A stretch of DNA of 64,000 bases from a candidate division WOR-3 bacterium. GTDB lineage: Bacteria; Hydrothermota; Tepidihabitantia; B3-TA06. The position numbers and the translations under genes are program-made. Location: positions 1-64,000 of the forward strand of contig CBFGKC010000005.1 in NCBI GenBank assembly GCA_965649265.1. Direction: 5' to 3'. The notes below the pieces were generated by a model that searched no databases, was not told the DNA's origin, and saw nothing but the letters and a program-made list of their open reading frames with translations. Positions 7,305 to 53,292 of this stretch are shown piece after piece. How positions within the stretch are numbered: position 1 is the first letter of the stretch; each line of letters starts with the position of its first letter.

Positions 7305-7955
7305 GTGAATGACAGAATTCAAATATCCGCCTCCATTCTAAACTGCGATTTTTCGCGGCTTGGAGAAGAAATACGCGCCGCCGAGAAAGCGGGCGTGGAT
7401 GCCTTTCACCTCGACGTGATGGACGGCCATTTTGTGCCAAACATAAGTTTCGGCCCGCCCGTCACCGCTCACATACGCAAGCTCACGGAACTCCCCATCC
7501 GTGCGCATCTTATGATAACGGATCCCGTCAAATACGCGCCCCGCTTCATTGAAACCGGCGCGGACGAAATTTTGTACCACGTCGAGGTCGCCACAGAGCT
7601 CACCCTACCCCATCTTTTAGACTTTTCAATCCCCGTAGGTGCGACACTTAACCCCAACACCCCGCTCGAAACCGTGTACCCGCTGCTGCCCGATTTGTCG
7701 CAAGTTTTGCTCATGAGCGTGTACCCGGGATTCGGAGGCCAGGGATTCATACGCGAGACCCTCGACCGTATCCTCTTACTAAAACGTGAGATAGAGCGCC
7801 AGGGGCTTTCCACGCCGATTTCGGTGGATGGCGGCATAAATCCCGAAACTGCGCCGCTTGTGCGCGACGCCGGGGCCGATATCCTCATCGTCGGTTCGGC
7901 ACTCTTCCGCTCCCCCGACTACGCCGAGGTCGTCCGCAAGGTCAAAGGACTGTAA
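7305..7955 (+). CDS. rpe: Ribulose-phosphate 3-epimerase
   Basis: SILNCDF, HLDVMDGHFVPNISFG, HLM, MSVYPGFGGQ, VDGGIN, GSALF. Confidence 0.97.
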   Translation: MNDRIQISASILNCDFSRLGEEIRAAEKAGVDAFHLDVMDGHFVPNISFGPPVTAHIRKLTELPIRAHLMITDPVKYAPRFIETGADEILYHVEVATELTLPHLLDFSIPVGATLNPNTPLETVYPLLPDLSQVLLMSVYPGFGGQGFIRETLDRILLLKREIERQGLSTPISVDGGINPETAPLVRDAGADILIVGSALFRSPDYAEVVRKVKGL

Positions 7956-14362: not shown

Positions 14363-14986
14363 ATGAAAAGAATTAATCCTTTTACAATCGCGGTTTTGAC
14401 GTTGTTCGCTTTGGTGCCGTCATTGTCGGCGGCGAGCAAGACGGAGGTCGAGATTGAAGATTTCGCTTTCGTGCCGAAAAGCGTCACCATTTTCCAGGGC
14501 GACACAGTCGTGTGGAAAAACCGCGACAACGTTGGCCACACCTCGACCAGCGGAGAATCCGGAGTGCCGAACGGCCTGTGGGATTCAGGCATACTCGGCA
14601 GAGATCAAACTTTTTCGCGAGTTTCCGACTCGGCGGGCACATTCCCCTATTATTGCAAGCCCCATCCAATAATGACCGGAACCGTCGTCGTTGAACCAAG
14701 ACCTGATACCACCGACTCAACACCTGCAGTAATAATCGAGAATAACGATGAACCCGTCCCGCAGCTCAAGGTAGAAGCAGGTGTCGTAAAGTTTTCGGTA
14801 ATTGAGCGCGGCCCGGTTGATGTAACGATATACGATGCGACAGGGCGTCAAATGGAACTGGTCGTTCGCGGATTCTTCACAAGCGGCGTGCACAGCCTGC
14901 CTATGAAACCACTGGAAAGAGGAGTTTATTTCGCAAGGCTCGTGTCTGGGGAATATGTAGTGACCCGCAAGATTATTCAACTTTAA
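14363..14986 (+). CDS. Plastocyanin/amicyanin-like blue copper protein with T9SS-type C-terminal domain
   Basis: Signal peptide; FVPKSVTI..GDTVVWKN..GHT; YYCKPHPIMTG type-1 Cu ligands; C-terminus IYDATGR...GVYFARL...TRKIIQL. Confidence 0.85.
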   Translation: MKRINPFTIAVLTLFALVPSLSAASKTEVEIEDFAFVPKSVTIFQGDTVVWKNRDNVGHTSTSGESGVPNGLWDSGILGRDQTFSRVSDSAGTFPYYCKPHPIMTGTVVVEPRPDTTDSTPAVIIENNDEPVPQLKVEAGVVKFSVIERGPVDVTIYDATGRQMELVVRGFFTSGVHSLPMKPLERGVYFARLVSGEYVVTRKIIQL

Positions 14987-26214: not shown

Positions 26215-28455
26215 TTAAAAACTGAAAGAGAGCTTTACTTCCAGGCTTCTTGCAGGAATCGGACCCGGAGTGCAGGCCTCGTAGAAATCGAGCGCCCTCT
26301 TATACGCGCTCACCTCTTCCCCGGCCGTGATGTACCCGTCGTGGTTTAAGTCCCTGGAGGGGTGATACTTTGATTCTCCGAGATAAACGCGATCCGGATA
26401 ATCGTTCTCTGATGGATGCGCCGGGTCTGCGACCTTTCCGAAAACCGGCCCTGTCCAGCCGAAGGGATTAAGCAAAGTCACTTCGACGGAAGGACGAAAG
26501 ACGCCGAACGTAAAGGTTCTGCCCAGAGAGAACTCCAGCCATACCCACCACGGCATGTTGTCCTGGCCCTCCTCCTCGGGGAATCCTGAAGCGAGAGCGG
26601 CTCTGGGAGAGAAGGACCATTCCCTGAATAAAAACGGGAATTCCACAGGTGTCTGGAAACGTGTGTTGAGAACGATCTTGTGCCTTGAATCAAAAGGCGT
26701 ACGGTCCAACGTGTCGGTCGTGGAAGCGCCGTTAACGAGGTTTTCGTAATCTTCAAAGACACCCTGGCTCGTCGATTTGCTCGATGAAAATCTGTACGAG
26801 AGATCCAGCGAGCCCCACTCGGAGTAGTAACCTATCCAGGGCATTGCGGTAACGCAGACGCCGTTCGCGTCGAGATAGATTCCCGCCGCAGGAGACAGGG
26901 TATCGAGAGAGTCGCCTGAATGAATAAGTTTAGCGCCAGGGGTTTTGTAGCTTACGTTTGAAGAAAGATCGAAGCCCATATGCCAGTTACCGGAGATCCT
27001 TCTTTGAGCGGTTACCCATGTGCGCCACGCCCTTTCCGGAGAGGCCTTGACCTTGGGAAATAAAAGAATCGTGTCCGTCCGCGATGTATCCCCGTTATTA
27101 TCCAGAAACCACGCATAGGGCAAAACGCCTGCGGCCAGATCGGAGCCTGCGTAGATGTCAATATCCCACAGAGACGTAGAAGCCGTAACTCGCGGCATCA
27201 AGGAAAGCTTGATATCCAGGGTATCATCATCAATAAGAGTATCCTTTCTTTCTGTTTCCATGTATATGAATCCCAGCCCGGGCTCAATCCATGATTCGCC
27301 AAGATGCAGCCTGTCCGCCAGATAGAAATCGCCGAATCTGGGCGTATACTGGAATTCGTCGGTGAGAATCCTCGTTTGTTCCATATGGATCGATCCGGAT
27401 ATGAAGTCGTATCCCGTAAAGGACAAAAACCCTCGAAGCTCATTAATATCCCCTGCGAAAAAGTTCGCCGACGCCCTCGCGCAATTGGCCACTGAACTTC
27501 GTTCGGTGATTCTGGGATTCGTTCCTTGCGAATAGAAAAGACCCTCCACGCCGAATGGATTTTCGGTATTAAGCGCCGCGTGAGGCGAAGTCGTATCCTG
27601 TGTGACAAAACCCGTAAACAGAGGCATTTCGTCGCCTTCTCTTCCGCCCCGCCACAGATACCCCGAGTATCTTGAAAGCGTCATTCTCAGATCGATGGCT
27701 TTTTTGTCGTAAATGAAATCAAAATACAAGAGATTGGCGCTGGTGTAGCTCGCGGTAGAGGAAAGAGGATTGAAAAACCATTCAGGTGAATAGATATCCC
27801 TTTGATTGAGGGAACTTGCGTATCCTATCCGGGCGCACAAACCCTCGGAGGGAACAACAGTAGCCGTTGCCGCGTATGTGTAGGCCGAGAGCCCGGTGCG
27901 AATGTCCGCTGAGGACGATTTCAGGTTGTAGTAAGGCCTCTCCTGCCATCGCATCAACGCACCATCCGCTGAAACGGTCAGTTTTTCCCCGAGCGGAACG
28001 TCCACGGATAAATCCGCCTGACCGTTCTTTGCGTCGGGAATAAAAAAAGGCGATGTCGTGTTGAAGTTGATATAAAGTTGCCGGTCACGCGCGTCCCTCT
28101 GCGCAAAATTCACATTAGGGGCAACGCTTCCGCTCTGTCTTTCGAGCAAGGCCTCTCCGCACATAGCCGACGGCAGAAACAAAGACAATTCGGAGGTTTG
28201 TGGATCTGTGAGCGGAATGCCGTTAAGTGTAATCCTGGTCTCATCAGGTCTGAAGCCCGCGAGTGTAATGGATTCTCCTTTGACGGTAAAATCTGGCAGC
28301 AGCCACGCCGAGCGAATCCGCGCCTGGGGATCAGCCGATACAAGACCGGGTAACAGATCGCTGTATGGAAATACACGGCCTGATTTTAGAAAAAGCACAG
28401 TATCTTTTTCAGGGATTTGGGCCAGCAACCCGAGAAAGACCAGCCAGTTAAACAT
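26215..28455 (-). CDS. Divergent TonB-dependent-receptor-like outer-membrane beta-barrel protein
   Basis: Plug-like segment (LAGFRPDETRITLNGIPLTDP), amphipathic strands, C-terminal RSLEVKLSFSF, and an EF-hand-like DLNHDGYITAGE. Confidence 0.65.
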   Translation of the reverse strand: MFNWLVFLGLLAQIPEKDTVLFLKSGRVFPYSDLLPGLVSADPQARIRSAWLLPDFTVKGESITLAGFRPDETRITLNGIPLTDPQTSELSLFLPSAMCGEALLERQSGSVAPNVNFAQRDARDRQLYINFNTTSPFFIPDAKNGQADLSVDVPLGEKLTVSADGALMRWQERPYYNLKSSSADIRTGLSAYTYAATATVVPSEGLCARIGYASSLNQRDIYSPEWFFNPLSSTASYTSANLLYFDFIYDKKAIDLRMTLSRYSGYLWRGGREGDEMPLFTGFVTQDTTSPHAALNTENPFGVEGLFYSQGTNPRITERSSVANCARASANFFAGDINELRGFLSFTGYDFISGSIHMEQTRILTDEFQYTPRFGDFYLADRLHLGESWIEPGLGFIYMETERKDTLIDDDTLDIKLSLMPRVTASTSLWDIDIYAGSDLAAGVLPYAWFLDNNGDTSRTDTILLFPKVKASPERAWRTWVTAQRRISGNWHMGFDLSSNVSYKTPGAKLIHSGDSLDTLSPAAGIYLDANGVCVTAMPWIGYYSEWGSLDLSYRFSSSKSTSQGVFEDYENLVNGASTTDTLDRTPFDSRHKIVLNTRFQTPVEFPFLFREWSFSPRAALASGFPEEEGQDNMPWWVWLEFSLGRTFTFGVFRPSVEVTLLNPFGWTGPVFGKVADPAHPSENDYPDRVYLGESKYHPSRDLNHDGYITAGEEVSAYKRALDFYEACTPGPIPARSLEVKLSFSF

Positions 28456-28460
28456 ATTAT

Positions 28461-28488
28461 AGCTTAGCCTGAATCAACTGGATGTCAA
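28461..28488 (-). promoter_or_regulatory. sigma70-type promoter (probably leaderless)
   Basis: Minus strand TTGACA-16nt-TAAGCT; ATG 5 nt downstream. Confidence 0.55.
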
Positions 28489-28595
28489 GACGACACTTGC
28501 ATCCTTGGGGTGAATGTCGCGGGATTGCAACTGCCGGCTGCGATGCTTGCCTTTGATTGAAGCCTGGCCTCTGAAATATACTCTTTGTGGAGATT

Positions 28596-29537
28596 TTACC
28601 GGGAGGCTCGCTTGCTCTTGATTCGTTCCGCGACTCGCCAGGCGATTATCAACTGGGCCAGACCGATCTCGTCAACCGTTTTGAGCGCTCGTGGGAGAAC
28701 CAAGGCATTCGCTTTACCGGCGAGTGTCGCTATTCTTTGTTCAACCTCAACGAGCATATCCCTTGAGATGAAACCGTTGATTTCGATTCTGCTTTTCGGT
28801 TTTTTTCCTCTGAGATCCTTGCGGTACTCGAAATAAAGCTCCTCGGCCTGGGTATGGCACATTCTCGACAAATTCAACGGAAGGTGTATATCAGAAAGTC
28901 TTTCATCGGTAATCTTCTGCAGCAGTCTTATCCAGTAAGGTGACCCCTTGCCGAAATGTGACCGGGATAACTCCTCTTTTATTTGAACTACGATCTCCGC
29001 GCTGCTGCGCTGAGGTTCAATCCATCGCCGGTAGTCGGGCTGGCGCTCAGCGATGGAGGCGAGAACCGACTTCTTTGAGTGACCGCGCTCCTCTACGTCT
29101 CTTTTTATCTTCCACGCTTCCTTGACTTGTTTGTCAGGATCTATGTAGATGGAAAAATCCCAAAGCGCTCTCAATTGCCTGGTATAGAAGGGGAGAAGAC
29201 CTTCAAGAATGACCACCAGCCCGGGTGTGAATTTTTCCGGCGGCCGGAAGGTTCCGTCGGAGTGATCGTAACACGGTTTCATTATGCTCAGGCCTTGCCT
29301 GAGCATCCCAGCGTGCCTTGCAAGAGCGTCGAGATCGTTTGCCTTTGGATTCAGGGCGGTTAACCCGCGCCTCTGGCGCTCCTTTCGGTCAAAAAGGTGA
29401 TAGTCGTCGAGGGATATCGTGGAAACCCTTCTCTCGCCGAAAAGATGCCTGATACCATGAGCAAAAGTGGATTTGCCCGAGCCGGAATCGCCGGCTATTG
29501 CGACGAGAAAGGGGGGAGGGGGGGCAGCTTTCACCAC
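28596..29537 (-). CDS. prk: Phosphoribulokinase (archaeal/RHP-type sequence features)
   Basis: AGDSGSGKST, LDDYH..DR.ER..GLTALNPKAND, KPCYDHSDGTF..PE, EGL, DFSIYIDP, WKIKRDVEERGH, RQPDY..IEPQR..A; overlaps the RuBisCO stop codon. Confidence 0.88.
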   Translation of the reverse strand: MVKAAPPPPFLVAIAGDSGSGKSTFAHGIRHLFGERRVSTISLDDYHLFDRKERQRRGLTALNPKANDLDALARHAGMLRQGLSIMKPCYDHSDGTFRPPEKFTPGLVVILEGLLPFYTRQLRALWDFSIYIDPDKQVKEAWKIKRDVEERGHSKKSVLASIAERQPDYRRWIEPQRSSAEIVVQIKEELSRSHFGKGSPYWIRLLQKITDERLSDIHLPLNLSRMCHTQAEELYFEYRKDLRGKKPKSRIEINGFISRDMLVEVEQRIATLAGKANALVLPRALKTVDEIGLAQLIIAWRVAERIKSKRASR

Positions 29538-30796
29538 TGCTTGTGTCCCCAGATTTCGTACGCGGCACCCACGTCTGCGTCCCTTGCGGCAAGTGCTTCT
29601 ATGGATTCTCCCTTGAGCGCGGCGTCAATAACCTTGCGTGTCGTTCTTGCGCCTGCCCTCGTCCCCCCGGGGTGGCCGTGAATACCCCCACCTTGCATGA
29701 TGGCGACGTCGATTCCGAACGCCTCGAGAAGCGCCGGGATCAAAAACGGATGCAGCCCGCCTGATGCGACTGAAAGAACCGGCTTTAACGGACGCCAGTC
29801 CTGTTTTAGCATGACGCCGTCCGCTGCGGTTTCGTCCTTGTTCATATCGGCGTGAATCCTTTGAACCTCCTCTCTTGATCCCTCCATCTTGCCGACGATT
29901 GTGCCGATATGGAGTTGATCGACGCCGGCAAGCCTGGCCAGTTTTGAAAAGCACGCAGTGCTCATGCCGTGCTCGGGAATCCGGGTGAAAGCTGCGTATC
30001 CTGCCCTGTGCGCATGAATCGCCAGCCCTTCCGTGTGTTTCCGGAGCGACTGAACCGCCGACCACCCGGCCGTGACCACGTCAATCATTACGTACTTCGC
30101 GCCGGCCTTCTTCGCCAGCTCAACTCTTTTGACCATCTCATCGGCAGGCGCGGTGACGTTAGGCAGATAACCCTTTTTCTCTCCGGTTTCACGCTGCGCC
30201 CTATCCTGAGCCTTGAGCGACAGTTCAAGTCTTTTCTCGAACCGGTTGAACTCCTGATTCGTCAGGTTTTCGTCGTCCTTCACGATATCGCATCCACCCG
30301 CCATTGCTTCGTAAAGAACGTTCGAGAACTGGTCGGGCGATAAACCCACCTTTGGTTTGACGATAGTGCCTACAACCGGCCTCCCTTTTATTTCAAGCAT
30401 CTTTTTGACACCGGACGCGCCCAGTGCCGGCCCCTGAAAGCTTTCCAGGAGCTTTGCGGGAAGGCTGAAATCTTCCAGTCGCAACTTCGCAACCGCCTTC
30501 ATACCGTAGATGTTTCCGGCAATTGACGAAAGGATCTGGGACAGGGAACCCGGTTCAAAAAGCCCCTGGGGATAAGCGATCCAGACATAGGGCGGGGACA
30601 CCTTGTAGATGTGCGGCTTAAGGGTCTCCCCTACCTCCGGAATCATCGTTGCTACGTCTGTCCAGGTTCCTATGGACGACTCACCGGCCAGCGCCCCGGC
30701 GACTTCCTCGATACTCTTTCCGGAAGAGGGTTCTACCCGGAAAACGGTTAAAAGATCCCCTCCCCCCGGTGCGTACTCGAGGTCCAGATAATCCAT
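29531..30796 (-). CDS. rbcL: Form III ribulose-1,5-bisphosphate carboxylase large subunit
   Basis: GESSIGTWT, IAGNIYGMK, GTIVKPKVGL, GGCDIVKDDENL, HAHRAG, DQLHIGT.VGKMEG, VASGGLHP, GGGIHGHPGG; 421 aa from ATG 30796 after AAGGAG; no rbcS nearby. Confidence 0.92.
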   Translation of the reverse strand: MDYLDLEYAPGGGDLLTVFRVEPSSGKSIEEVAGALAGESSIGTWTDVATMIPEVGETLKPHIYKVSPPYVWIAYPQGLFEPGSLSQILSSIAGNIYGMKAVAKLRLEDFSLPAKLLESFQGPALGASGVKKMLEIKGRPVVGTIVKPKVGLSPDQFSNVLYEAMAGGCDIVKDDENLTNQEFNRFEKRLELSLKAQDRAQRETGEKKGYLPNVTAPADEMVKRVELAKKAGAKYVMIDVVTAGWSAVQSLRKHTEGLAIHAHRAGYAAFTRIPEHGMSTACFSKLARLAGVDQLHIGTIVGKMEGSREEVQRIHADMNKDETAADGVMLKQDWRPLKPVLSVASGGLHPFLIPALLEAFGIDVAIMQGGGIHGHPGGTRAGARTTRKVIDAALKGESIEALAARDADVGAAYEIWGHKQW

Positions 30797-30823
30797 GTCA
30801 TCTCCTTTGGTTGTTGTGGTTTG

Positions 30824-30851
30824 AGTATAAGACAAAAAAGTGACCGGTCAA
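30824..30851 (-). promoter_or_regulatory. sigma70-type promoter of the rbcL-prk operon
   Basis: Minus strand TTGACC (30851-30846)-16nt-TATACT (30829-30824). Confidence 0.65.
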
Positions 30852-30900
30852 GAAACGTCACCATACCGGTCGAATCGTGGTCAAGCCCGGTTTTCGAAGA

Positions 30901-31670
30901 TTATCTTGAAATCACAATCGTCTTTAAGACACGAGTGATGTTGCCTGTCTCCAGGGTTATGAAGTACGAACCGGAGAAGGGACCGGTTTTATCCCACGGG
31001 ATCGTAGTTGTACCCCGGACAGCCTGTGCATCGTAAAGGGTCTCGACGAGCCGACCCGCAACATCCCAAATCCGCACCCTCGCCGAACCCCTGGAGGGGA
31101 TGCTGAAACTTATCTCGGAGTTTGTGATTAAAGATAATCTCGCATCATCAGTCATCGGTTCCGATTTTTCGATCCCCAGAAGAGTGCCCACGCGACCCAT
31201 GTGGCGCAAGGTCGGGTCACCGTAAAGGGCAAGGCCGTAAGTGTTTAAGAAGCCGGTCCCTAGATCCTCTTTGAAATATTCTGCCCTGGCGGCATTCCAA
31301 TCGCTGCCCCACGATACGCGCGTGTGTGCAAGAACTCCTGCGCTTGTTTCGTTAAGAAGAGCCTGTGCGAGATTAAAAAAGCTTTCTGGATAACCGTTCA
31401 GGCATGACATCAAAAAAGCCACGTTCGGGTATGAGTGATTAAGTTTCGCGGCGTCCGGGACTGAAAGCCCCAGGGGCCAGTCGAGCTCAGCGTCCTCGGA
31501 TTGACCGTCGCCGTTGTCATCGTACCAGACACATCGTGCGAATGTAGACGACGAACCTTGATTGTTCTCGACAAACACCCCCGCGTTGCTGCCGGCAAGC
31601 GCAGAAACGAGGTTTTCGTTCGTAAAGGGAATGTCGCATTTATAAGACGAGGGATCGTCACTCCCCTTTT
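30901..31670 (-). pseudogene. Truncated C25 (gingipain-like) peptidase paralogue with T9SS-type C-terminal domain
   Basis: Aligns to the C-terminal part of 31790-34048 (PSSYKCDIPFT..AGVFVENNQG..FARCVW..NVAFLMSCLNGY). Catalytic His is replaced by Gln, about 35 aa are deleted internally, and there is no signal peptide or propeptide. Confidence 0.7.
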
Positions 31671-31789: not shown

Positions 31790-34048
31790 TTAGTTGATAA
31801 CAACCGCTTTGACGGTGCGAATAAGATTTTCAGCCTTGAGGGTGATGAAATATGAGCCCCTGGGCAGTTCGCTCTTATCCCATGAAAGAACCTCGTCGCC
31901 TGCTTTTGCGGTTCCTTGATAAAGCGTCTGTACGCGTCGCCCGGCGGCATCCCAGACCTCGACGCTTACGCTCATTGCAGTTGGCAAGCTGAAGAGTATG
32001 CGATTGTTACGATCTACGGTTAAGCTTACCGGTATCAAAGGTGTCACGTTTTCACTTACCGCCTGGAGTGGAGGTAACGTCCCGCTGCGACCCATATGCC
32101 TGATTGCCGGATCGCCGAAGATGATATGCTCGTAGGTGTTTATATACCGGCTCGTTCCGGATTCAAGGTTGTAATAATTGAGCCTGCCGGCATCGACGGC
32201 ATCGCCCAACACGTAGTCGTAGGTTTCGGATTTCTTGAGGTAATTTTCCAGAACGTAACAGTAAAGACCGTTTTGGCCGCCCTGGGACGGATTGGTCCAG
32301 CCTTGCCTGCCGAGCGCGGAACGCGTGTGAGCTACCACTGCTACGCTGCCGTAATTCAAGAGGGCTTGAGCAAGGCAGTTCGACTCCTCGGCATAGCCGT
32401 TAAGGCACGAAAGCAGAAAAGCGACATTGGGGTTGGTTGTGTTAAGTGTAAATGCATCGCTGCTTACGAGACCGTTCGGCCAGTCGAATTCGGCGTCTTC
32501 AGGCACGTTATCGCCGTCGTCCGTCGCCCAGACGCATCGCGCGAAACTGTTCTTCCAGCCGTGGTTGTTCTCGACAAAGACACCGGCGTCTGTATTCTTA
32601 AGGGTGCTTTTGAGGTTGTCTTGTGTGAGGGGGACGTCCGGAGTGTAGGCCGAAGGCATTCTTCCATCTTCTTCATAGAGGGTCTTGGCGGATGCTGCTT
32701 TTACTATCCCGTTATTCATGAGGTATTCCATGTAGTAAGCGGCATCAAAACCAGCTGCGCCCGAACCGTTCCAGTTCGGATACCAGAGGATCCCTCCGGC
32801 AAGAACCGAAGTCTGCTTGTAAGTCGAATTGGTGCTGTTTTCGAACAACCAGGTCTTTTGTAATATCTTGGCTACGGTGCTCGGGTTGGAATTGTTGATA
32901 CGTCCGACGTGAAGTTCCATGCCGAAGTCCGGGGCGTCCTGGGGGTTCGGGAAGCCGCCGGCAGAAAGCATTTCACCGTAGTAACCATCCTTGTCGGAAT
33001 CCCATGAAGCGTTATCGGCAGCCGTCAGGTCGCCGTAATAGCAATCCGAAGGCATTGGGGCAACGTCGGCGTCGGGTGTATAGCCGTTAATGTAAGGGGA
33101 AAGAATTCGCATCGGGATATCGGTAAAGTGACCGACTATTAAAAGGTAATTGCAGTCCGTGGCGTTTTCCCTCAGCCAGTTGCGTATCTTCTGGGGAACG
33201 TCGGCCCCTTCGCTTGCTGCAACAATCTCTTCCTTGGTCACTACTTCCACATCAAAACCGGTGCTTTTGCGCCAGTAGGAGTAGCGACTTGTGGAGTCCT
33301 TGAGGGCAGCCGTGGTCAGGATGAGCATTTTAGGTTTGGCAAGAAGTCTTTCTTCAGGCTTGTACCACTCCTGGACCTGAGCCTGGTTGTAAAGCCCCCG
33401 AGGTACATCGGATTCAAGGCTGCCGGCCTCGATAAGTCTTGAGATAAACTCCTGGTGTTCCTTATCTGCAGGCTGGTATGAGATGCGAATCGAAATATTT
33501 TTCGCGACTGAAAGATTGCCGCTTACAGGATCGTACGCAAAAGGATAACACGCGACTGTCACAAGGGAATACTCGCGCTGCTCGTATTTTGAGTATGTTT
33601 CACCTAAAAGATCGGAAAGAGCCTGTTTTCCCGAGTAAACCAGTTCACGGGTAACTTCATAGTCCTTGAATAACTTCTCGACGTACTCACCTGAAGCGCC
33701 GAGCGGCATATCAGGCAAGCTTGCTTCCAAAAGATACTTGCCGTCTACCGGGGAGCGTGTCCCAGTTATCTCTACGTCTTTCACGACACTACCGGGAGGC
33801 AGTACAAAGGTATATGTCGGCATTGGCAAACGTGGATAACCCGCATATGCGGTGTAACCAACTTTCTCCATTTCGATTCTGGAATAACCCTTGTCCAGGG
33901 TGGAAATTGTGAATGCGGGCGTTGTTACATTGAATACAAGGGTTCCCTCATTACTAGTAAGGGTGACACCTCTTGTCACAATCGATCCGGCGACCGTGAT
34001 TGGAAATACGGCCACAAAGAACACAATCAAGGCCACTATCTTTTTCAT
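31790..34048 (-). CDS. C25 (gingipain-like) cysteine peptidase with propeptide and T9SS-type C-terminal domain
   Basis: Signal peptide MKKIVAL; propeptide G.P.LP...LPP..YPFAYDP; YLLIVG, SDCYYGDL, VGRI, NHG and SC dyad, FGDP; VWDAAGRRV...GSYF. AAGGAG RBS; promoter TTGATT-16-TATAAT at 34166-34139. Confidence 0.88.
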   Translation of the reverse strand: MKKIVALIVFFVAVFPITVAGSIVTRGVTLTSNEGTLVFNVTTPAFTISTLDKGYSRIEMEKVGYTAYAGYPRLPMPTYTFVLPPGSVVKDVEITGTRSPVDGKYLLEASLPDMPLGASGEYVEKLFKDYEVTRELVYSGKQALSDLLGETYSKYEQREYSLVTVACYPFAYDPVSGNLSVAKNISIRISYQPADKEHQEFISRLIEAGSLESDVPRGLYNQAQVQEWYKPEERLLAKPKMLILTTAALKDSTSRYSYWRKSTGFDVEVVTKEEIVAASEGADVPQKIRNWLRENATDCNYLLIVGHFTDIPMRILSPYINGYTPDADVAPMPSDCYYGDLTAADNASWDSDKDGYYGEMLSAGGFPNPQDAPDFGMELHVGRINNSNPSTVAKILQKTWLFENSTNSTYKQTSVLAGGILWYPNWNGSGAAGFDAAYYMEYLMNNGIVKAASAKTLYEEDGRMPSAYTPDVPLTQDNLKSTLKNTDAGVFVENNHGWKNSFARCVWATDDGDNVPEDAEFDWPNGLVSSDAFTLNTTNPNVAFLLSCLNGYAEESNCLAQALLNYGSVAVVAHTRSALGRQGWTNPSQGGQNGLYCYVLENYLKKSETYDYVLGDAVDAGRLNYYNLESGTSRYINTYEHIIFGDPAIRHMGRSGTLPPLQAVSENVTPLIPVSLTVDRNNRILFSLPTAMSVSVEVWDAAGRRVQTLYQGTAKAGDEVLSWDKSELPRGSYFITLKAENLIRTVKAVVIN

Positions 34049-34433
34049 GAGCATGACTCCTTATTGTTAGCGTTCAGCGATATTCTCCTTTATAAATCGT
34101 CCAGAAATCAGGACCGTTTTCAGAAAATCACCATATGTATTATAGTCCGCAAAAAACATTAATCAAGTCCCGGTTCAGCTATCATGGGTGATAGCATCAA
34201 TAACATTCAAACCACTTCGACGTCCGAGAACCCAGGGATATCCCTTTGTCTCGATCTCGGAAACGGCCGCACTCTCTAACTTTCAATACTGTGCGGTTTA
34301 GAACATTCAAGTTATTAAAGGGAAGACGGGGCCAGCAATAACACAGATTATCACGTTTCTTTTCTTCCCATGTTGTTCTATGTTGGAGATTTCTTGAAAC
34401 TTACAAGAACCCATTAGAAAGGGATACAACACC

Positions 34434-46759: not shown

Positions 46760-47775
46760 TCGCTCACCTGGGTTCCTTTGTAGTAGTAGGAAAGTATTTC
46801 ACGGTAATTCTTGCCGTGGGCGGCCATGGCAGCCGCTCCCCACTGGCATAGACCTACGCCGTGACCTAGTCCGTGTCCCTTGAATACAAAATCCTCCCCA
46901 TCCTTCTTTACGTCGAACCACGAGCTTTTGAGTGTTCCCCAACCGAGTGATTTCGCGAGTAAGTCACGGAAATCCCAACCGGAGAATATCATAGACGAGG
47001 AACCCCTGACCCTTATCTGCTGAACCCGAGAATCTGGGGCTAAAGAAACAATCTCAATAGAGGATACGTGTGGCAAGCCGAGAGCCGAGGCCACGAAGTC
47101 AGCCGAAACGCAATATTCCCAACACAGGTCTGGGGAGTTCTTACAGTAATCGTCATTGACCGAAACAAGATAAGACGCTCTTTCATCCGGCCAGATGGAT
47201 CTCGCATCTGCGGTTTTCCCTCCGCATGAGGAATGGTAGAATATCTCACAGGGATTCCCATCATAAGTAAGGACGAGTCCGCGAGTCTCACCCACTGCCT
47301 TAATTGTCAATGGTGTCGTGCTTTCAAGACCGAGGTAGGATTGACAATGAGTAAGATCGCAAAAATCCCAGTCGTCGTTTTGGTGGCGGGATGCGGTATG
47401 CGTGAATGTACGGCACAAAACCGCCTGTGCCTTCAGTGCTTCAAGTCCCGCTCTCGGAACCATCTCGGCTCCGACGACGGATGAAAGATAGGAATCCTCG
47501 TCCAGTTTATTGACAAACACTAACTCGCCGTTTTCGGCTTTCACCTTGAGTGAACCAGGATATCTGCGGTTCATTTCGCCACACTGAATAGTGAAAGAAT
47601 CCACGTCAAGGACCCACTCGATTGATTTGATCCCGTTCACGAAAAGTGTATTAGTCTTGGCCTCCAGACTTACACTGCCTTTCCTGGAAACTACATTCGC
47701 CTTCACAGGATGGTGTGACGAAAGGATATGGACACTCACGGCTGATACCACAAGAAGAATGCTAGCGATCTGCAT
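46750..47775 (-). CDS. SpoIID/LytB domain protein (putative lytic transglycosylase)
   Basis: YLSSVVGAEM, EALKAQAV.CRT, DFCDLTHCQSY, FYHSSCGG.T, GLGHGVGLCQWGA, IL.YYY.G; start at ATG 47775 after GGAGG. Confidence 0.9.
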   Translation of the reverse strand: MQIASILLVVSAVSVHILSSHHPVKANVVSRKGSVSLEAKTNTLFVNGIKSIEWVLDVDSFTIQCGEMNRRYPGSLKVKAENGELVFVNKLDEDSYLSSVVGAEMVPRAGLEALKAQAVLCRTFTHTASRHQNDDWDFCDLTHCQSYLGLESTTPLTIKAVGETRGLVLTYDGNPCEIFYHSSCGGKTADARSIWPDERASYLVSVNDDYCKNSPDLCWEYCVSADFVASALGLPHVSSIEIVSLAPDSRVQQIRVRGSSSMIFSGWDFRDLLAKSLGWGTLKSSWFDVKKDGEDFVFKGHGLGHGVGLCQWGAAAMAAHGKNYREILSYYYKGTQVSEWH

Positions 47776-48709
47776 ATCCACCTCCGAAGTAGGATGAGAA
47801 TACGAGTCCGGCAAGCTGTGCGGCGTCTTTGCCTTCGCCGCGCTTGAGGAATACTACCAGAGCTATTCTGGGATCGGCGTATGGTGCGAAACCTACGAAC
47901 CAGCCTTGTGTCACCCAGCTTTCGAGAACTGTTGAAGTCCCGGTCTTGCCCGCAACGGCAACAGATGTAATATCGGCCGGTTTTCCCGTTCCCCTTCGCA
48001 CTACGTCACGTAGAAGCGGTCGGACTCGCGCGAGTGCTTTTTGATCAGGGAGAGTTGAGAGCATGATTGCAGAGCCATGAGAAAGCCTCGGCTTGATTAG
48101 ACTGCCGTTTGTGGCAATTCCAGAGATCAAAGCGAGCATAGCCACCGGTGTAAGCTGGATTGCCGCACCCTGACCTATTGAGAATTCACGAAGCGCCGAG
48201 TCTGTAGAAGGAATCTGGATTAGACTCTCCCCCTCGCCCGGCAGGTCAACTCCGACCTTCCCGCTGAGCCTCAGATTTCGAGGAAGCGCAGCAAGCTCTT
48301 CAGCGGTCAGACTTCTGGATAGATTCTGAAAGTAGAGATTGCAGGATTCGACGAGCGCACGGTCAAAATCGACCCAGCCGTGCCCGTCGCGCATCGAGCA
48401 GCGTAGCGTATCCCTCCCCCTCACTTCGATACCCGTACAGAAGAAACTGTCATCGGTTACCGAACCTTTGTCCAATGCGGCGAGAGCGGTCAGCATCTTT
48501 GCTACCGAACCTGGCGGAAATCTCTTTGAGAAAAGGAGATCCTTGTCCGTCGCCGCAATGAGATAGCCCGATTTCAGATCCATTACGGCAATCGCGGCCC
48601 TGTCGCCTGCAATCTCAGAGCATCGCTTCTCGAACTCGGTATAATCAACGAATCTGCCGCCGGCTGCAACTGCGGGAACAGTCAAAAGAATCAGAAAGCC
48701 CAGTATCAC
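47762..48709 (-). CDS. Stand-alone penicillin-binding transpeptidase domain protein
   Basis: PGSVAK (SxxK), SCN (SxN), AGKTGT (KTG), GWFVGFAP. Confidence 0.88.
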   Translation of the reverse strand: MILGFLILLTVPAVAAGGRFVDYTEFEKRCSEIAGDRAAIAVMDLKSGYLIAATDKDLLFSKRFPPGSVAKMLTALAALDKGSVTDDSFFCTGIEVRGRDTLRCSMRDGHGWVDFDRALVESCNLYFQNLSRSLTAEELAALPRNLRLSGKVGVDLPGEGESLIQIPSTDSALREFSIGQGAAIQLTPVAMLALISGIATNGSLIKPRLSHGSAIMLSTLPDQKALARVRPLLRDVVRRGTGKPADITSVAVAGKTGTSTVLESWVTQGWFVGFAPYADPRIALVVFLKRGEGKDAAQLAGLVFSSYFGGGYADR

Positions 48710-51700
48710 TCCTTTACGGTTATGATGGACTCGGAGGAATGCCCTGTTTTCTCGGGATAATACATAAGCGATATTCTTGCAGGCATCACATGATAGGTTC
48801 CTGGCAGGTACGGTTCGAGGACATACGAGAGTACACGCTCACCGGTCCAGATATGACTCATGAAGAAGGCGACATGATCGTCATGTATCTCACGGCCGGA
48901 GTACATGTAACCCCACTCATCATCGTAGTCGTAGTAGCCCCACCAGTAGCGCTCGTTCTTTATGGGATAACGGTCGCGATCCTTGGACACTTCAAAGCCT
49001 GCAGGTATGGGGTCAGCAAGCATCACGTATTCGAACTCGTTTTCGCAATCCACGTAGAGCTTCACGAACAGTGGCTCGCCTATCTTGACAGGGCCCTTGA
49101 GTTCTTCCTTGTAGTATACCAACTCGTCATTTTCGACTCTGGGAACGAGCCTGTAGTACCTGCGATGGACCTTGAGCTCGGTGCCGCCTTCGGGGATACC
49201 CTCCTCCTCGCTGTAGAAAGAAAGGACGGAACTGAAGAATAGATTCCCCTGTCCTGTTTTGTGGACCTTAAGGGTATTATTGCCCATTGAGGCGCTCGAA
49301 AAATCGAGTTCGATAGGCCTGTTGAACTCAAGTATATCTTTCTCGGAGACGTTGTAGGAAGCTATCTTGCGGCCGTTCAGGGTAAAATCGATATCAATCT
49401 TGGGTGAGGTGTCGCTCGTGATCTTAAGGAATTCTGCAATTGCCAAGAGGGAGAGTGCGGAATCCTTGGTGGACTTCCAGTGATTTCCTCGGCGCTCGCG
49501 GAGCAGCCAGTATACTATCTTGGGAACCATCTCGTCCTTGGGAGATATGGCCAGGAACGCGCGCAGTGTTGTTGCGGTAACCTCTACGGGGTCATCTCCC
49601 CAATACTCGACTGCCCGAGTTGTTGCGCTCCAGTAAACTATCTCGCCGTCAGATATCGCGTCCTTTTTCAAACGCTCGAGTGCTGCCTTCGCCTTTGCAG
49701 TTTCGCCGACCTTTTGCCAGGTCAACGCGATAAGGGCGCGAGAGTAGGGGTCAAGTTCACCCTTCTCGAGTGATGCAGCCTCTGATTTAATGAGCGAGGA
49801 GTTGTCGCCAGGTGCGAGGGAAAGAACGTAGATCATGTAAGCGCGCTCGACAGTCGCAATATCCTTCCCGTTCGCAAGAAGATTCTTAATGGCCGCAGTG
49901 CCTCGCTCGATGACCTTGGAATTGATGTCGTAACCGAGATTGGAGGCGTAAATTAAGCCGTGCATGACGTACGCAGTCATGTAGTTCATCGTCTGATCGA
50001 ATTCCCACCAGCCCCAACCGCCGTCTGAATGCTGGTAGCCGTATAGCTTCGCCAAGCCTTTCTCTATCATCTTCGGCAGCTCGGCTGCGAGTTTGGGGTC
50101 GCCGCGCTTCGGATCTTTTATGAGATCGGCTACGAGGAGGTCCGGGAAGAAGCTCGACATCGTTTGCTCCGCGCAGCCGTAGGGATATCCGGCAAGGTAT
50201 GAAAGACCCGAAAAGAGGGCTGAACCGATAGTAGGGGTGAGGGTCAAAGAACCTTTAATGCTCTGCATATCAGTACCCTCAGGAATCTTGAACTCTCTAG
50301 TCACGCGCTCGTCGGCGCCGGGCATGAATGCAGAAAGTACAAGGTTACGCTCTACTCCGTGAGGGTTGATGGGGACCTTTATCTGCATTGCATCTGAGAT
50401 ATCGGGAGCGATCGCCTTTGCTATGAGAGTGGCGTCCCCTGTTGCCGTGGCTCTTACCGGCCAGTCTACCCTGTAACTGCCACCAGGTCTTATGTTTTCT
50501 GTGTGAGTCGTCTTGTCGAGAAGCTCGAGCCCGGCTGCTGAGAACGAAAGCTCCACCTCTTGGCTGCTTCTGGTGTAGTTGTGGACTATTGTGGAAATTA
50601 CGAGACTGTCGCGTTCGGTGATGAAGCGCGGAGACATGATGCGAACAAGGAGGTCTTTGGTGACCAGGGTCTTTTCCCTGCTCTCGCCGACCTTAGTGTC
50701 TGGGGTTATTGCCCTCGCCGTGGTTCTCCAAGTAGTCAGATTCTCAGGATACGTAAAGGAAACGCTGGCCTTGCCCTGACCGTCGGTTCTGACAAATGCG
50801 TTCCAGTATGCCATATCCTCGAATCGCTGGCGGACCTGGGGCTCCTCGCGTCCCTTATATGCAGCGAGCACAACGCTGTCCTTGGCCGCGCCTGAGAGAC
50901 GTGAGTACTCCTGTTCGTAGCCGTAGAAGGAGAAGTAGACCGAGGAGGAGGTCGAGACTTCATTGTACCTTTCTCCGTAGAAATAATCCTCTATGGGAGG
51001 TGTTATCTCCTCGGCCAGCGAGTAGAGTGCCTCATCAACGACGGCAAGGGAAAGGTCGGCCTTCACCGGTTTGCCCTTCGAATCCTTGACTACTATGTCG
51101 AGCTTGCCTTTCTCGCCCGGCTCGTAACGGTTCTTGTCTGGTTTCACCTGGATTGCAAGAAGCTCGTTCTTGCGGTTGATCTTGAACTCCTTCTCCTGCC
51201 TGAAGAAATCGCCGTCGTATACCCCGGCGATTGAAAGGTAAGCGTTTGGCACGAACTCCTTGCGGACGTCGAATCTTATGAGCGCGGTGTTTCCCTTGAG
51301 GCTGACGACGTCTACCTTGTATATCCTGTCGGCTTCTATCGAGGCTATCATGTGCGCGTCCTTGTAAGGGGCGATGACTAGCGCCTCGGCCTTGTCGCCC
51401 GGCTCGTAAGTCTCCTTGTCGAACACGATCTGGATCTCGTCAGTATTCCAGGAGTAGTAACCTCCGTAGGAGGATACCCACACCCAGCTCTCCTCGCTCG
51501 ATTGATTGCCGTCAGGGTCTTCGGTTGATGAGTTGAAATAATACGATCCAGCTTCCTTTGGAGTAAAATCAAAACTCGCCTGTCCCATCGGACCCACGGA
51601 GATTGTCCTTCTAGTGACAAGCTGATCTTCCTTGTTCCAGTAGTGCTTGTAGATTTCGATATCGACTACGGCAGCAGCCGGTTTCCCGAAGATGTCGCGC

Positions 51701-53292
51701 GTTTTTACCGAAAGACTCATCTTCTCGCCAGGCTCAACAACGTACTTTGAAGGCCTTACATCTATGAGTATCCCGGATTCTGCAACGAAAGCGTATGCGG
51801 AACCGGTTTCGGATTTACGCGATTCGTCACGAACCTCGGCATCGAATGTGTATCGGTAACTCGCGCCGTCCTTGGGTGTGATGTATTTAAAGACGGCCTT
51901 GCCCTGATCATTTGTCTGCGTCTTCAACTCGTCGACGTACTCGGAGCCGTACCAGTAATAGTCGTCGTAATTGACCCGGTAAACCTTGAGCGACACATCC
52001 GCGCGAGAGACAGGGGCGCCGAAAAAGTAATCGGCCGCAACCGTTATCTTGACCTCGTCACCCTGAACGTAGGCCTCCTTGTCCGCAGATACTTCGACCT
52101 TGTATTCGGGTTTTCGGTATTCCTCGACCCTGAACTGCACGGAATGGTAAGTGCTGTCCACACTGGCGCTCAGGGTGTAGCGGCCAAGACGGCCAGAAGA
52201 AGGAACCACGAGAGAATCCGCGAGTGCACCCCAGGAATCGGTTTTCAAAGTTTTTTTATAGATCTCGTTACCTTCAGGATCGCTGACGATTACTTCCACG
52301 TCCTTCACTTGCGGCGTTCGATAAGTGCCGTTTTCCTTTAATCGAAGAATACCCTTGAAGTATACGACCTGGTCGGGTCTATATATCGGCCGCTCAGTTT
52401 GGAGGTAGAGCTTTGCTCCACTCTTACCCATATATCCCCCCTCCCCTTCGTAGTCGTAGTAATAGTAGTTGTCAAGAATGGCGAAATCATTCCCGTCCTG
52501 CGCCAGTACGCGAAGGTGAGTGGTGTCGAAAGCGGCATGGAAGAGACCCTTGCCGTCCGTCTTCCCTGCGGCGACCTTCGATGTATCGGAAAGGACCATG
52601 ATCTTTGCTCCGCGGCGAGGCTTGCCGTCCGTGGAGGAGACCGCGAAAAGGTAAACGTCCCTGGTATCCTGCTTCGCCACGAGCGACATCTCGCTTACTA
52701 TGACAGGGGTGTATGCGACCCGGGTGCCGTAGTAGGCTTCAACGAGATATACGCCCGGCTCGTCGAGAGCCAGGTCGACATCCTTGTAATGGTAGTCCGA
52801 GTAGTAGTAGTAATCTTCGTTGGTTTTCTTTTTCTTTTCGAACTTGATCTTCCATTCCCTGATGAAAGGGTACCCCTTCAACTTTGGAATGCTCGCCTGA
52901 CCGATTCTCTCAGGTGTTTCTTCCGGTTTCTCGAGCCTCGGGAGGCCTAGAAAATCCCGCAACGACACGCGGCTGTCTTCCCCGATTATCTCGCGGGAAA
53001 GGTAGCGAGTGTTATGCTTCGTGCGGTCGGCAAGACCCTCTATCACGTTGAAGAAATTAGCGGGCTTGACCTTGGCACCAACCCTGGGCGAGCGCACGTT
53101 CTCCTGATGAGAAAAAAACTCTATCGGATCATCGATCCTGTAGAGCCTCATGTATACTTCGTCCGTACCCGAGGCCTCGAGCCTTATCTCGGTGGAGGAA
53201 CCCGGCGCATATATCGAAGGGGTTGAAACGTATATGTAGGGGTGGGCGAAAAGCCCCCCTGCGAGAGTCAATAAGAAAGAAAAAAACTTCAT
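48706..53292 (-). CDS. Bacterial alpha-2-macroglobulin (YfaS-like)
   Basis: TERPIYRP, VEEYRKPEY, VRQRFEDMAYW, PENLTTW, thioester motif YPYGCAEQ, QHSDGGWGWW, DPIPAGFE, PGTYHVMPA..MYYPE. Confidence 0.93.
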   Translation of the reverse strand: MKFFSFLLTLAGGLFAHPYIYVSTPSIYAPGSSTEIRLEASGTDEVYMRLYRIDDPIEFFSHQENVRSPRVGAKVKPANFFNVIEGLADRTKHNTRYLSREIIGEDSRVSLRDFLGLPRLEKPEETPERIGQASIPKLKGYPFIREWKIKFEKKKKTNEDYYYYSDYHYKDVDLALDEPGVYLVEAYYGTRVAYTPVIVSEMSLVAKQDTRDVYLFAVSSTDGKPRRGAKIMVLSDTSKVAAGKTDGKGLFHAAFDTTHLRVLAQDGNDFAILDNYYYYDYEGEGGYMGKSGAKLYLQTERPIYRPDQVVYFKGILRLKENGTYRTPQVKDVEVIVSDPEGNEIYKKTLKTDSWGALADSLVVPSSGRLGRYTLSASVDSTYHSVQFRVEEYRKPEYKVEVSADKEAYVQGDEVKITVAADYFFGAPVSRADVSLKVYRVNYDDYYWYGSEYVDELKTQTNDQGKAVFKYITPKDGASYRYTFDAEVRDESRKSETGSAYAFVAESGILIDVRPSKYVVEPGEKMSLSVKTRDIFGKPAAAVVDIEIYKHYWNKEDQLVTRRTISVGPMGQASFDFTPKEAGSYYFNSSTEDPDGNQSSEESWVWVSSYGGYYSWNTDEIQIVFDKETYEPGDKAEALVIAPYKDAHMIASIEADRIYKVDVVSLKGNTALIRFDVRKEFVPNAYLSIAGVYDGDFFRQEKEFKINRKNELLAIQVKPDKNRYEPGEKGKLDIVVKDSKGKPVKADLSLAVVDEALYSLAEEITPPIEDYFYGERYNEVSTSSSVYFSFYGYEQEYSRLSGAAKDSVVLAAYKGREEPQVRQRFEDMAYWNAFVRTDGQGKASVSFTYPENLTTWRTTARAITPDTKVGESREKTLVTKDLLVRIMSPRFITERDSLVISTIVHNYTRSSQEVELSFSAAGLELLDKTTHTENIRPGGSYRVDWPVRATATGDATLIAKAIAPDISDAMQIKVPINPHGVERNLVLSAFMPGADERVTREFKIPEGTDMQSIKGSLTLTPTIGSALFSGLSYLAGYPYGCAEQTMSSFFPDLLVADLIKDPKRGDPKLAAELPKMIEKGLAKLYGYQHSDGGWGWWEFDQTMNYMTAYVMHGLIYASNLGYDINSKVIERGTAAIKNLLANGKDIATVERAYMIYVLSLAPGDNSSLIKSEAASLEKGELDPYSRALIALTWQKVGETAKAKAALERLKKDAISDGEIVYWSATTRAVEYWGDDPVEVTATTLRAFLAISPKDEMVPKIVYWLLRERRGNHWKSTKDSALSLLAIAEFLKITSDTSPKIDIDFTLNGRKIASYNVSEKDILEFNRPIELDFSSASMGNNTLKVHKTGQGNLFFSSVLSFYSEEEGIPEGGTELKVHRRYYRLVPRVENDELVYYKEELKGPVKIGEPLFVKLYVDCENEFEYVMLADPIPAGFEVSKDRDRYPIKNERYWWGYYDYDDEWGYMYSGREIHDDHVAFFMSHIWTGERVLSYVLEPYLPGTYHVMPARISLMYYPEKTGHSSESIITVKE

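Follow-up and report, generated by a model that had tools for sequence, protein, structure and literature searches.

A conserved rbcL-prk operon in a peptidase-rich WOR-3 bacterium and its possible role as an accessory CO2-incorporating module

Results

An overlapping rbcL-prk pair on the minus strand

We analyzed a 64,000-nucleotide stretch of DNA (the window; positions 1 to 64,000 of contig CBFGKC010000005.1, GenBank assembly GCA_965649265.1) from a candidate division WOR-3 bacterium, which carries a two-gene operon for a carboxylase/oxygenase of ribulose-1,5-bisphosphate (RuBisCO) and a phosphoribulokinase (PRK). The window belongs to contig C5 of a 2.74-Mb metagenome-assembled genome (MAG) that comprises 27 contigs and is 96.4% complete. 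The minus strand encodes both genes, a point that an earlier note made from the letters alone had left out. The RuBisCO large-subunit gene rbcL (29531..30796) forms an open reading frame (ORF) of 421 aa from an ATG and is followed by prk (28596..29537; class II/archaeal type), an ORF of 313 aa from a GTG. The stop codon of rbcL (TGA) overlaps the GTG start of prk in the motif GTGGTGA (29531..29537, minus strand; tcaccac on the plus strand), which suggests that translation of the two genes is coupled. In three loci of relatives (L003, L004, and L006), the PRK match likewise sets in 4 nt ahead of where the rbcL match ends. Upstream of rbcL, a sigma-70-like promoter motif (TTGACC-16 nt-TATACT; 30824..30851, minus strand) agrees with the consensus at 10 of 12 positions. 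It is a consensus match only and was the best of four sites found in a simple consensus scan of positions 28300-31100, for which shuffling gave a mean of 1.6. A Shine-Dalgarno sequence (AAGGAG; 30802..30807, minus strand) was read 5 nt ahead of the rbcL ATG. A TTG farther upstream, at 30835, would be an alternative start of rbcL but would fall inside the promoter motif. No terminator-like hairpin was found when the minus strand behind prk was scanned for one. The gene pair, the overlap, the promoter motif, and the ribosome-binding site were all present as the earlier note had described them.

That note did not know such a system from this lineage. However, its occurrence in WOR-3 has been described before: according to a survey of 181 MAGs by Zeng et al. 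(preprint June 2025; mSystems, October 2025; PMC12542636), five WOR-3 MAGs of genus B3-TA06 (subgroup 1) carry a form III RuBisCO together with prk and are devoid of AMP phosphorylase and ribose-1,5-bisphosphate (R15P) isomerase, and a bacterial Calvin cycle is proposed.

RbcL groups with a bacterial form III-type clade

RbcL contains the Pfam domains RuBisCO_large_N and RuBisCO_large and matched the NCBIfam model TIGR03326 (rubisco_III) with 526.7 bits, above the equivalog cut-off of 497.45; its scores against the form IV models MtnW and OiaX were far under the respective cut-offs. Among solved structures, the best matches were form III enzymes of archaea, with PDB 6hun in first place (E 2e-121), followed by 2cwx, 1geh, and 3a12. 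A small-subunit gene (rbcS, PF00101) was found in none of the 14 genomes searched, the own genome included, and RbcL therefore classifies as form III both by model score and by the lack of a detectable small subunit. In an alignment of the 120 best database homologs, residues E39, T44, N95, K147, K149, K173-D-D-E176, H263, R264, H296, K303, S345-G-G, and G369-G-G were invariant (120/120). On the basis of motif contexts, we take these columns to correspond to spinach E60 through G404. The standard active-site set on which the earlier note had based its exclusion of a form IV RuBisCO-like protein (RLP) was thereby recovered, and the data support the assignment of RbcL as a bona fide non-RLP form III-type RuBisCO.

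One position missing from the residue list of the earlier note differs. The residue after the motif H-R-A-x is Tyr267 (codon 29996-29998), presumably at the position of spinach H298, a ligand of the distal phosphate, so that conservation of the residues binding ribulose-1,5-bisphosphate (RuBP) does not extend to the H298 equivalent. Among the 120 homologs, this column held a residue other than His in 24 cases (23 Tyr and 1 Phe). The carriers comprised all rows of the WOR-3 order, Ammonifex thiophilus, Desulfothermobacter acidiphilus, and a few unnamed sequences, whereas His was retained in two sequences of form I and in the remaining form III sequences of the comparison. Tyr267 thus appears to be a clade marker and no private defect.

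The RuBisCO and PRK trees were quick maximum-likelihood trees with SH-aLRT values as the measure of support. In the RuBisCO tree, form I was represented by two rows on a long branch, and form II, form I', form I-alpha, and Thermodesulfobium acidiphilum lay outside the sample. The RuBisCOs of the WOR-3 order formed one clade (14 rows; support, 99). Its sister group (support, 90) consisted of the two form I rows, the Ammonifex/Desulfothermobacter group, the MAG "bacterium S5B7_HD70" (L111), and one unnamed protein (P0017). Jointly, 27 rows were supported at 99 and were nested among archaeal form III sequences, with form I placed there on its long branch. This topology points to membership of RbcL in a bacterial, PRK-linked clade that includes Ammonifex and Desulfothermobacter; it does not match the III-b assignment given by Zeng et al. 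(PMC12542636). The WOR-3 clade would accordingly lie where archaeal form III gives way to form I, or close to that point, which means that its native role bears on the origin of the Calvin cycle.

Prk is predicted to be a true phosphoribulokinase

Prk carries the Pfam domain PRK (PF00485) and exceeded the cut-off of the NCBIfam model NF005655 (286.1 bits; cut-off, 236), while it failed the models for uridine kinase (111; cut-off, 180) and pantothenate kinase (PanK; 35; cut-off, 235). Among solved structures, the cyanobacterial PRK 6gve_J matched residues 5-208, i.e., the catalytic half (E 6e-58), and the Methanospirillum PRK 5b3f_A aligned over the whole length (residues 7-303). The sequence blocks LDDYH, KPxYxH, EGL, WKIKRD..ERGHS, and RxPD match those of solved PRKs and were invariant in 14 clade members. 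The P-loop reads GDSGSGKS, as in the archaeal PRK 5b3f, and lacks the regulatory Cys of GDSGCGKS, in agreement with the earlier reading of a P-loop without the redox Cys.

In the PRK tree, the family PRKs (13 rows; support, 95) fell inside a 25-row clade (support, 99) that also holds order-level relatives and unnamed metagenomic proteins. E. coli Udk and class I PRK were remote from the family PRKs; the Udk branch measured 3.7 changes per column, and its join with the cyanobacterial-type rows was flagged as a meeting of long branches. The clustering with uridine or pantothenate kinases that the earlier note had envisaged as a refutation was not observed, given that model scores and tree set Udk apart and that the PanK model failed. 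The assignment of Prk as a true PRK and not a uridine kinase is therefore supported by sequence comparison. The Ammonifex PRK branched away from the family PRKs, on a long branch, so that the WOR-3 rbcL and prk genes have no single history in common with their Ammonifex counterparts. Within the clade of WOR-3-order and metagenomic PRKs, a sequence labelled "Archaeoglobus sp." (P0150; 50% identity) was found to nest. This nesting and the separate position of the Ammonifex PRK, in spite of its related RuBisCO, suggest inter-domain transfer and that rbcL-prk pairs were assembled independently.

The operon occupies a conserved locus and has been cleanly lost in a close relative

RuBisCO was detected in 10 of 41 related genomes, the own genome included. 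The other carriers were 7 of the 10 other family genomes and single genomes of two sister families (1/1 and 1/2), while the remaining families of the class had none (0/27). The operon is thus spread over four genera of the family and two sister families. The pair is conserved in related MAGs, since prk directly followed rbcL at all nine loci of the relatives (PRK identity, 53-67%). Among the 14 closest genomes, PRK scored over the cut-off in exactly the 8 genomes with RuBisCO, and the other 6 had neither. The homologs share 68-78% identity and have no stop codons, and both ORFs are intact in the window. The nearest named homologs of both proteins (64-68% identity) are titled "candidate division WOR-3 bacterium," and a locus with 72% identity bears the title "Candidatus Stahlbacteria bacterium."

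The gene order in the family is C25 peptidase, rbcL, prk, and a homolog of a 746-aa protein. In the window, the conserved upstream flank is a 225-aa ORF without a Pfam match (30901..31578, minus strand). It is 44% identical to residues 467-754 of the gingipain-family C25 peptidase at 31790-34054 and constitutes a 5'-truncated paralog of its C-terminal part. The conserved downstream flank encodes the 746-aa protein, which belongs to no Pfam family (26215..28455, minus strand); its homolog lies directly behind prk in five of seven family loci. Both flanks were visible at two of these loci, one at four, and none at one, with several contigs ending nearby. The same order recurred in independent assemblies of three other genera. 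G001 (96% complete), the one further genome of this genus that was searched, has kept the syntenic region, including the homolog of the 746-aa protein, but has no operon: about 80 nt separate the stop of the C25 paralog from the start of the 746-aa homolog, compared to 2.4 kb in the window. At the position of the upstream flank, G001 has a longer C25 paralog, divided between neighboring ORFs of 555 and 185 aa.

The GC contents of rbcL (56.7%) and prk (52.4%) do not stand out against those of the genome (51.3%), recA (55.4%), and rpe (56.5%). The window also contains the housekeeping genes ffh, ftsY, smc, recA, alaS, gyrB, fusA, and glmS, and because these surround the operon, it resides in the core chromosome. 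The shared locus, the clean absence in G001, and the composition together exclude a chimeric contig, a concern that the earlier note had raised. The data indicate that the operon is an old possession passed on vertically and now and then cleanly lost, as is the pattern for accessory traits. Additional contig scans covered at least 599 genome and at least 591 metagenome stretches, with one close relative each, and do not constitute a measure of distribution. A PRK beside a form III-type rbcL was uncommon: among the matches listed, 3 of 80 RuBisCO loci of other genomes had one within the flanks (those of Stahlbacteria, of Ammonifex, and of the S5B7_HD70 MAG), and RuBisCO lay within the retrieved flanks of 12 of 80 metagenomic PRK loci.

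The genome holds a complete gene set for a transaldolase-variant Calvin cycle

The genome was searched with family profiles, by tblastn with E. coli K-12 proteins as queries (28 plus 15), and with NCBIfam models on the resulting matches. The ribulose-phosphate 3-epimerase gene rpe, which lies outside the operon (7305..7955, plus strand), matched TIGR01163 with 240.6 bits (cut-off, 212.6), so that the gene named in the earlier note as a possible supplier of ribulose-5-phosphate (Ru5P) could be confirmed. The genome further encodes PGK, TPI, RpiB, a type I GAPDH (423 bits; cut-off, 367), a transketolase split into two adjacent ORFs, and a bifunctional fructose-1,6-bisphosphate (FBP) aldolase/phosphatase (G000:C1:359623-360714, L042; 597 bits; cut-off, 520). 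A transaldolase of 219 aa is of the TalC type (TIGR00875; 304 bits; cut-off, 246) and has Glu and Phe at the columns of Q59/Y131 in E. coli FsaA and E96/F178 in TalB. We take this to be the transaldolase state and not the fructose-6-phosphate aldolase state. Transketolase, transaldolase, and FBP aldolase/phosphatase, the enzymes that the earlier note had wished to see sought, were thus all present, and the gene set of the transaldolase-variant Calvin cycle without SBPase is complete, with FBP aldolase/phosphatase and transaldolase closing the cycle. Because FBP aldolase/phosphatase occurs in 13 of 14 genomes, including three RuBisCO-less family members, gluconeogenesis and the nonoxidative pentose phosphate pathway (PPP) represent the standing anabolic network of the lineage. 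The rbcL-prk pair would be a two-gene add-on that can close this network into a cycle.

Several enzymes of sugar metabolism were not found. Genome-wide searches for class II FBP aldolase, GlpX, and phosphoketolase gave no result. Phosphofructokinase (PFK; PF00365) was over the cut-off in none of nine family genomes, own genome included, in a search that did not cover PfkB-type and ADP-dependent PFK. Phosphoglucose isomerase (PGI; PF00342) and glycogen phosphorylase (PF00343) were each absent from all 14 genomes, and tblastn with E. coli queries gave no match for fbp, rpiA, zwf, gnd, edd, eda, pfkA, deoB, deoD, rbsK, glpK, xylAB, glk, and pgi. A shunt serving as the exit for glycogen or hexose in a cell lacking PFK was dropped as an explanation, in view of the lack of glycogen phosphorylase and PGI in the 14 genomes and of matches to glk, pgi, and xylAB.

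A scan of 44 window ORFs revealed no AMP phosphorylase, R15P isomerase, rbcS, or activase gene, as had been noted before. The best genome-wide matches to AMP phosphorylase and R15P isomerase stayed below the cut-offs, and no AMP route was found. The match to TIGR03327 (210 bits; cut-off, 535) was rejected as AMP phosphorylase and represents a thymidine/pyrimidine-nucleoside phosphorylase (NF004490; 535 bits; cut-off, 269); the e2b2-type match to TIGR00511 (166 bits; cut-off, 314) was rejected as R15P isomerase and represents MtnA (TIGR00512; 343 bits; cut-off, 279). The idea of a methionine-salvage role for RuBisCO, which arose from MtnA, was set aside in view of the full set of carboxylase residues and the coupling to PRK. 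The neighborhoods of the nucleoside phosphorylase, DeoC, and MtnA genes consist of unrelated housekeeping genes and form no nucleoside-catabolic operon. Hps (TIGR03128) and Phi (TIGR03127) were over the cut-off in none of nine family genomes, own genome included, and the weak matches in the family fell on Rpe and on GlmS-like SIS domains.

The hydrogenases resemble those of H2-evolving fermenters

Rnf genes and acetate kinase are present in the genome, together with three types of hydrogenase. A HydABC-type trimeric [FeFe] hydrogenase (G000:C6:45679-53174, L147) comprises NuoE-like and NuoF-like subunits, a 674-aa HydA, and the maturases HydE, HydF, and HydG. A four-gene cytoplasmic [NiFe] hydrogenase is group 3b-like; its best matches were sulfhydrogenase subunits, at scores below their cut-offs. 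A group 4 membrane [NiFe] hydrogenase (G000:C14:5653-17719, L154) contains NuoH/B/C/D-like subunits, three Proton_antipo_M proteins, MbhD/E, and MnhE as an Mrp-type module, and its large subunit retains both CxxC nickel-site motifs. A molybdopterin oxidoreductase core, sulfite/nitrite reductase, cydAB, and cyoAB were not found in the genome, in a search that did not extend to non-molybdenum or unusual respiration. As far as the genes show, no lithotrophic energy supply for autotrophic growth was recognized. The combination of hydrogenases and Rnf looks like the outfit of an H2-evolving fermenter, and H2 oxidation via HydABC and Rnf would be expected to yield far less ATP per NADH than the 3 ATP per 2 NAD(P)H that the cycle demands.

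Three minor observations concern these genes. The domain Fe_hyd_lg_C was found in the own genome and, among the 14 relatives, only in G015, and in no other family member. A 556-aa protein that precedes the group 4 operon has, of the domains of molybdopterin oxidoreductases, only the two at the ends (Fe4S4 and dinucleotide-binding). In its layout, this operon resembles formate hydrogenlyase.

Discussion

An accessory module in a fermentative host

From the gene complement and the arrangement of the operon, we infer what the enzymes do, which way flux runs, and what physiological role results, as follows. Prk would phosphorylate Ru5P with ATP, and a homo-oligomeric RuBisCO without a small subunit would carboxylate the product to yield two molecules of 3-phosphoglycerate (3-PGA). 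This predicted enzymatic core (Ru5P + ATP + CO2 to two 3-PGA) is well supported. Ru5P would be drawn from the nonoxidative PPP of the cell, i.e., from Rpe, RpiB, the split transketolase, and the TalC-type transaldolase. The host would be a fermentative peptide degrader whose sugar-phosphate flow is anabolic only, with FBP aldolase/phosphatase present and PFK not found. PRK and RuBisCO would then constitute the only route found that leads from pentose and hexose phosphates back to 3-PGA, and this route would skip the NADH-forming GAPDH. The module could run cyclically when energy allows. The operon is dispensable, because it was lost in close relatives. We consider it probable, on balance and with due caution, that the operon is an accessory module that converts Ru5P to 3-PGA with incorporation of CO2 in a fermentative heterotroph or mixotroph and that it is unlikely to support autotrophy. 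The earlier suggestion of a PRK-RuBisCO shunt or a Calvin-type role is thus the sensible one.

Several points weigh against this interpretation. The closest characterized users of the RuBisCO clade, Thermodesulfobium and Ammonifex, are described as autotrophs in PMC12999727 and PMC13454268. In a comparison of 8 carriers with 6 noncarriers that covered individual protein families, PRK was the only gene tested that tracked the operon; NiFe hydrogenase (14/14), pyrimidine-nucleoside phosphorylase (13/14), and FBP aldolase/phosphatase (13/14) were present with or without RuBisCO. Searches for pentose or nucleoside uptake, ribokinase, xylose genes, and DeoB-type phosphopentomutase brought up none of them and thus no catabolic source of pentose phosphates. 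Moreover, all absences reported here refer to Pfam and NCBIfam models or E. coli queries applied to a MAG of 96.4% completeness, with class I aldolases, PfkB/ADP-PFK, and unusual or non-molybdenum respiration outside the search.

Alternative explanations

A purely catabolic use is possible, though we would rate it on the unlikely side. PRK and RuBisCO would act as a natural "RuBisCO shunt" and form the sole catabolic exit from pentose phosphates, such as the ribose of scavenged nucleosides, to 3-PGA, with no autotrophy involved. CO2 would be a co-substrate, so that no NADH is formed upstream of pyruvate. RuBisCO shunts are known from oilseed embryos and from engineered yeast and E. coli carrying PRK and RuBisCO. 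If the operon works in this way, it would be a wild counterpart of the oilseed-embryo and engineered shunts, and it would fit a heterotrophic coupling of RuBisCO with PRK before the Calvin cycle, given the place of the enzyme near the base of form I. True chemolithoautotrophy, with a transaldolase-variant Calvin cycle, CO2 as the main carbon source, and H2 as the donor, appears to us unlikely, even though it has been proposed for WOR-3 by Zeng et al. (PMC12542636). It would account for the position of RbcL in a clade with Ammonifex/Desulfothermobacter and form I, for the fact that Ammonifex also has prk directly behind rbcL, and for hydrogenases that could yield NADPH, NADH, and reduced ferredoxin from H2. 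However, searches that included a molybdenum oxidoreductase core, Dsr-type sulfite reductase, and terminal oxidase revealed no lithotrophic or respiratory system that would yield ATP, the hydrogenase set is typical of H2-evolving fermenters, and the genome is rich in secreted peptidases. On stoichiometric grounds, the ATP gained from H2 through HydABC and Rnf would fall far short of the demand of the cycle. In addition, three of the ten other family genomes, one of them of the same genus, have lost the operon and evidently live without it.

The other alternatives have little in their favor. Form III enzymes usually serve the AMP route, according to Jaffe et al. (bioRxiv 386292), and 77 of 80 form III loci of other genomes had no PRK in their flanks (among the matches listed). 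An archaeal-type AMP salvage or pentose-bisphosphate pathway with an incidental neighboring kinase is nevertheless very improbable here, as the supposed pathway genes turned out to be pyrimidine-nucleoside phosphorylase and MtnA and as prk appears translationally coupled to rbcL and strictly co-occurs with it. The reductive hexulose-phosphate (RHP) pathway, in which Hps and Phi replace the transketolase-based regeneration, would agree with the archaeal type of the PRK, its full-length alignment to 5b3f, and its clade with the "Archaeoglobus sp." sequence, and a sister-family genome (G013) does combine RuBisCO and PRK with an adjacent Hps-like/Phi pair. Since the family genomes (0/9) have neither Hps nor Phi over the cut-off, with transketolase and transaldolase being present, we give this pathway hardly any credence for the operon studied here. 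Equally implausible is an assembly chimera or a decaying, functionless relic. The fragmentation of the MAG into 27 contigs and the lack of the operon in the same-genus genome could be quoted for it, but the gene order recurs in three other genera and independent assemblies, both ORFs are intact with invariant catalytic columns and stop-free homologs of 68-78% identity, and the operon has a host-like composition and core housekeeping surroundings.

The sister-family pair itself lies at G013:C63:4457-5640, where an Hps-like protein (190.3 bits; cut-off, 200) is encoded beside Phi (180.9 bits; cut-off, 160), with rbcL-prk (L010) located in the same genome. G013 thus holds a candidate bacterial RHP gene set. 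Another genome (G012) has an Hps-like/Phi pair without RuBisCO.

Relation to known systems

The WOR-3 system of Zeng et al. (PMC12542636) shares with the operon analyzed here the phylum and probably the family (the named homologs are 64-72% identical), the form III-type RuBisCO with prk, and the lack of AMP phosphorylase, R15P isomerase, and an oxidative PPP. It differs in its range, with one genus there compared to four family genera and two sister families here, and in the notation "rbcL/S," whereas rbcS was found in 0 of 14 genomes here. The same paper calls FBPase rare and describes subgroup 1 as lacking gluconeogenesis. Its main text never uses the word "aldolase," though the supplementary tables may hold some of the annotations given here; FBP aldolase/phosphatase was found in 13 of 14 genomes here. 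Since this enzyme is near-universal and yet FBPase is called rare, it seems to have been overlooked there. The published WOR-3 reconstruction therefore appears to miss the enzyme that closes both gluconeogenesis and the cycle, and the pathway map of the lineage needs revision. What the present analysis adds is the conserved locus, the clean loss within the genus, and the strict co-occurrence of PRK and RuBisCO over several genera and two sister families, as well as the cycle-closing FBP aldolase/phosphatase and transaldolase, the lack of any rbcS found, the clade-wide H298Y exchange, and the lack of a recognizable respiratory energy source.

Among characterized organisms, several provide partial parallels. 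The transaldolase-variant Calvin cycle was reportedly demonstrated for Thermodesulfobium acidiphilum by Frolov et al. in PNAS in 2019. That organism is likewise reported to have a form III-type RuBisCO without small subunit, PRK, no SBPase, and formation of sedoheptulose-7-phosphate by transaldolase (see also PMC12999727 and PMC8927339). It is described as an H2-oxidizing, sulfate-reducing obligate autotroph, whereas the bacterium studied here has the appearance of a peptide fermenter in which no sulfite or other respiratory reductase was found. The related locus of Ammonifex thiophilus has the same rbcL-prk order and a RuBisCO of the same broad clade, but the PRKs of Ammonifex and WOR-3 are not nearest relatives. 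Methanospirillum hungatei is said to use the RHP pathway with an archaeal PRK and a form III-a RuBisCO (Kono and coworkers, 2017). Its PRK belongs to the same structural class as Prk, with a full-length alignment and the Cys-less P-loop GDSGSGKS, but the identity is only about 38-40%, and here a bacterial host has transketolase and transaldolase and no Hps or Phi was found. For Thermococcus kodakarensis, a pentose-bisphosphate (AMP) pathway has reportedly been worked out (Sato, 2007; Aono, 2015). The two share the RuBisCO family (PDB 1geh/3a12; E 1e-106) and a use outside classical autotrophy, but RuBP is formed through AMP phosphorylase and R15P isomerase there and would be formed from Ru5P through PRK here.

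Gottesmanbacteria from the CPR (candidate phyla radiation), as described by Jaffe et al. 2019 (bioRxiv 386292), are also uncultured fermenters with a form III-type RuBisCO (III-c/III-like), PRK, and a bifunctional FBP aldolase/phosphatase, and the same debate arises there between a partial Calvin cycle and a PRK-fed shunt. They differ in having kept deoA and e2b2 and in a PRK of "putative bacterial type" near cyanobacterial sequences, whereas no AMP route was found here and Prk groups with archaeal-type PRK. Since the WOR-3 host looks obligately fermentative and has no evident means to pay for autotrophy, it makes a good test case for a heterotrophic use of PRK and RuBisCO.

Host and further genes of the window

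The earlier note had described the host as a diderm, peptidase-rich, WOR-3-like bacterium that uses the type IX secretion system (T9SS). The domains of the window and the named WOR-3/Stahlbacteria homologs agree with this description, as the window encodes LpxD, LpxC, LpxA, and OmpH, two M28 peptidases, C25 and M42 peptidases, and several T9SS sorting tails (Por_Secre_tail). A 207-aa cupredoxin of the plastocyanin/azurin family is encoded at 14363-14986 (plus strand); searches of the genome brought up neither a terminal oxidase nor a nitrite reductase. A bacterial alpha-2-macroglobulin of 1528 aa is encoded at 47762-53292 (minus strand), with a penicillin-binding transpeptidase and a SpoIID-like protein directly after it. 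The pairing of alpha-2-macroglobulin with a penicillin-binding protein is known from diderm bacteria, and its presence suits a bacterium with many secreted peptidases.

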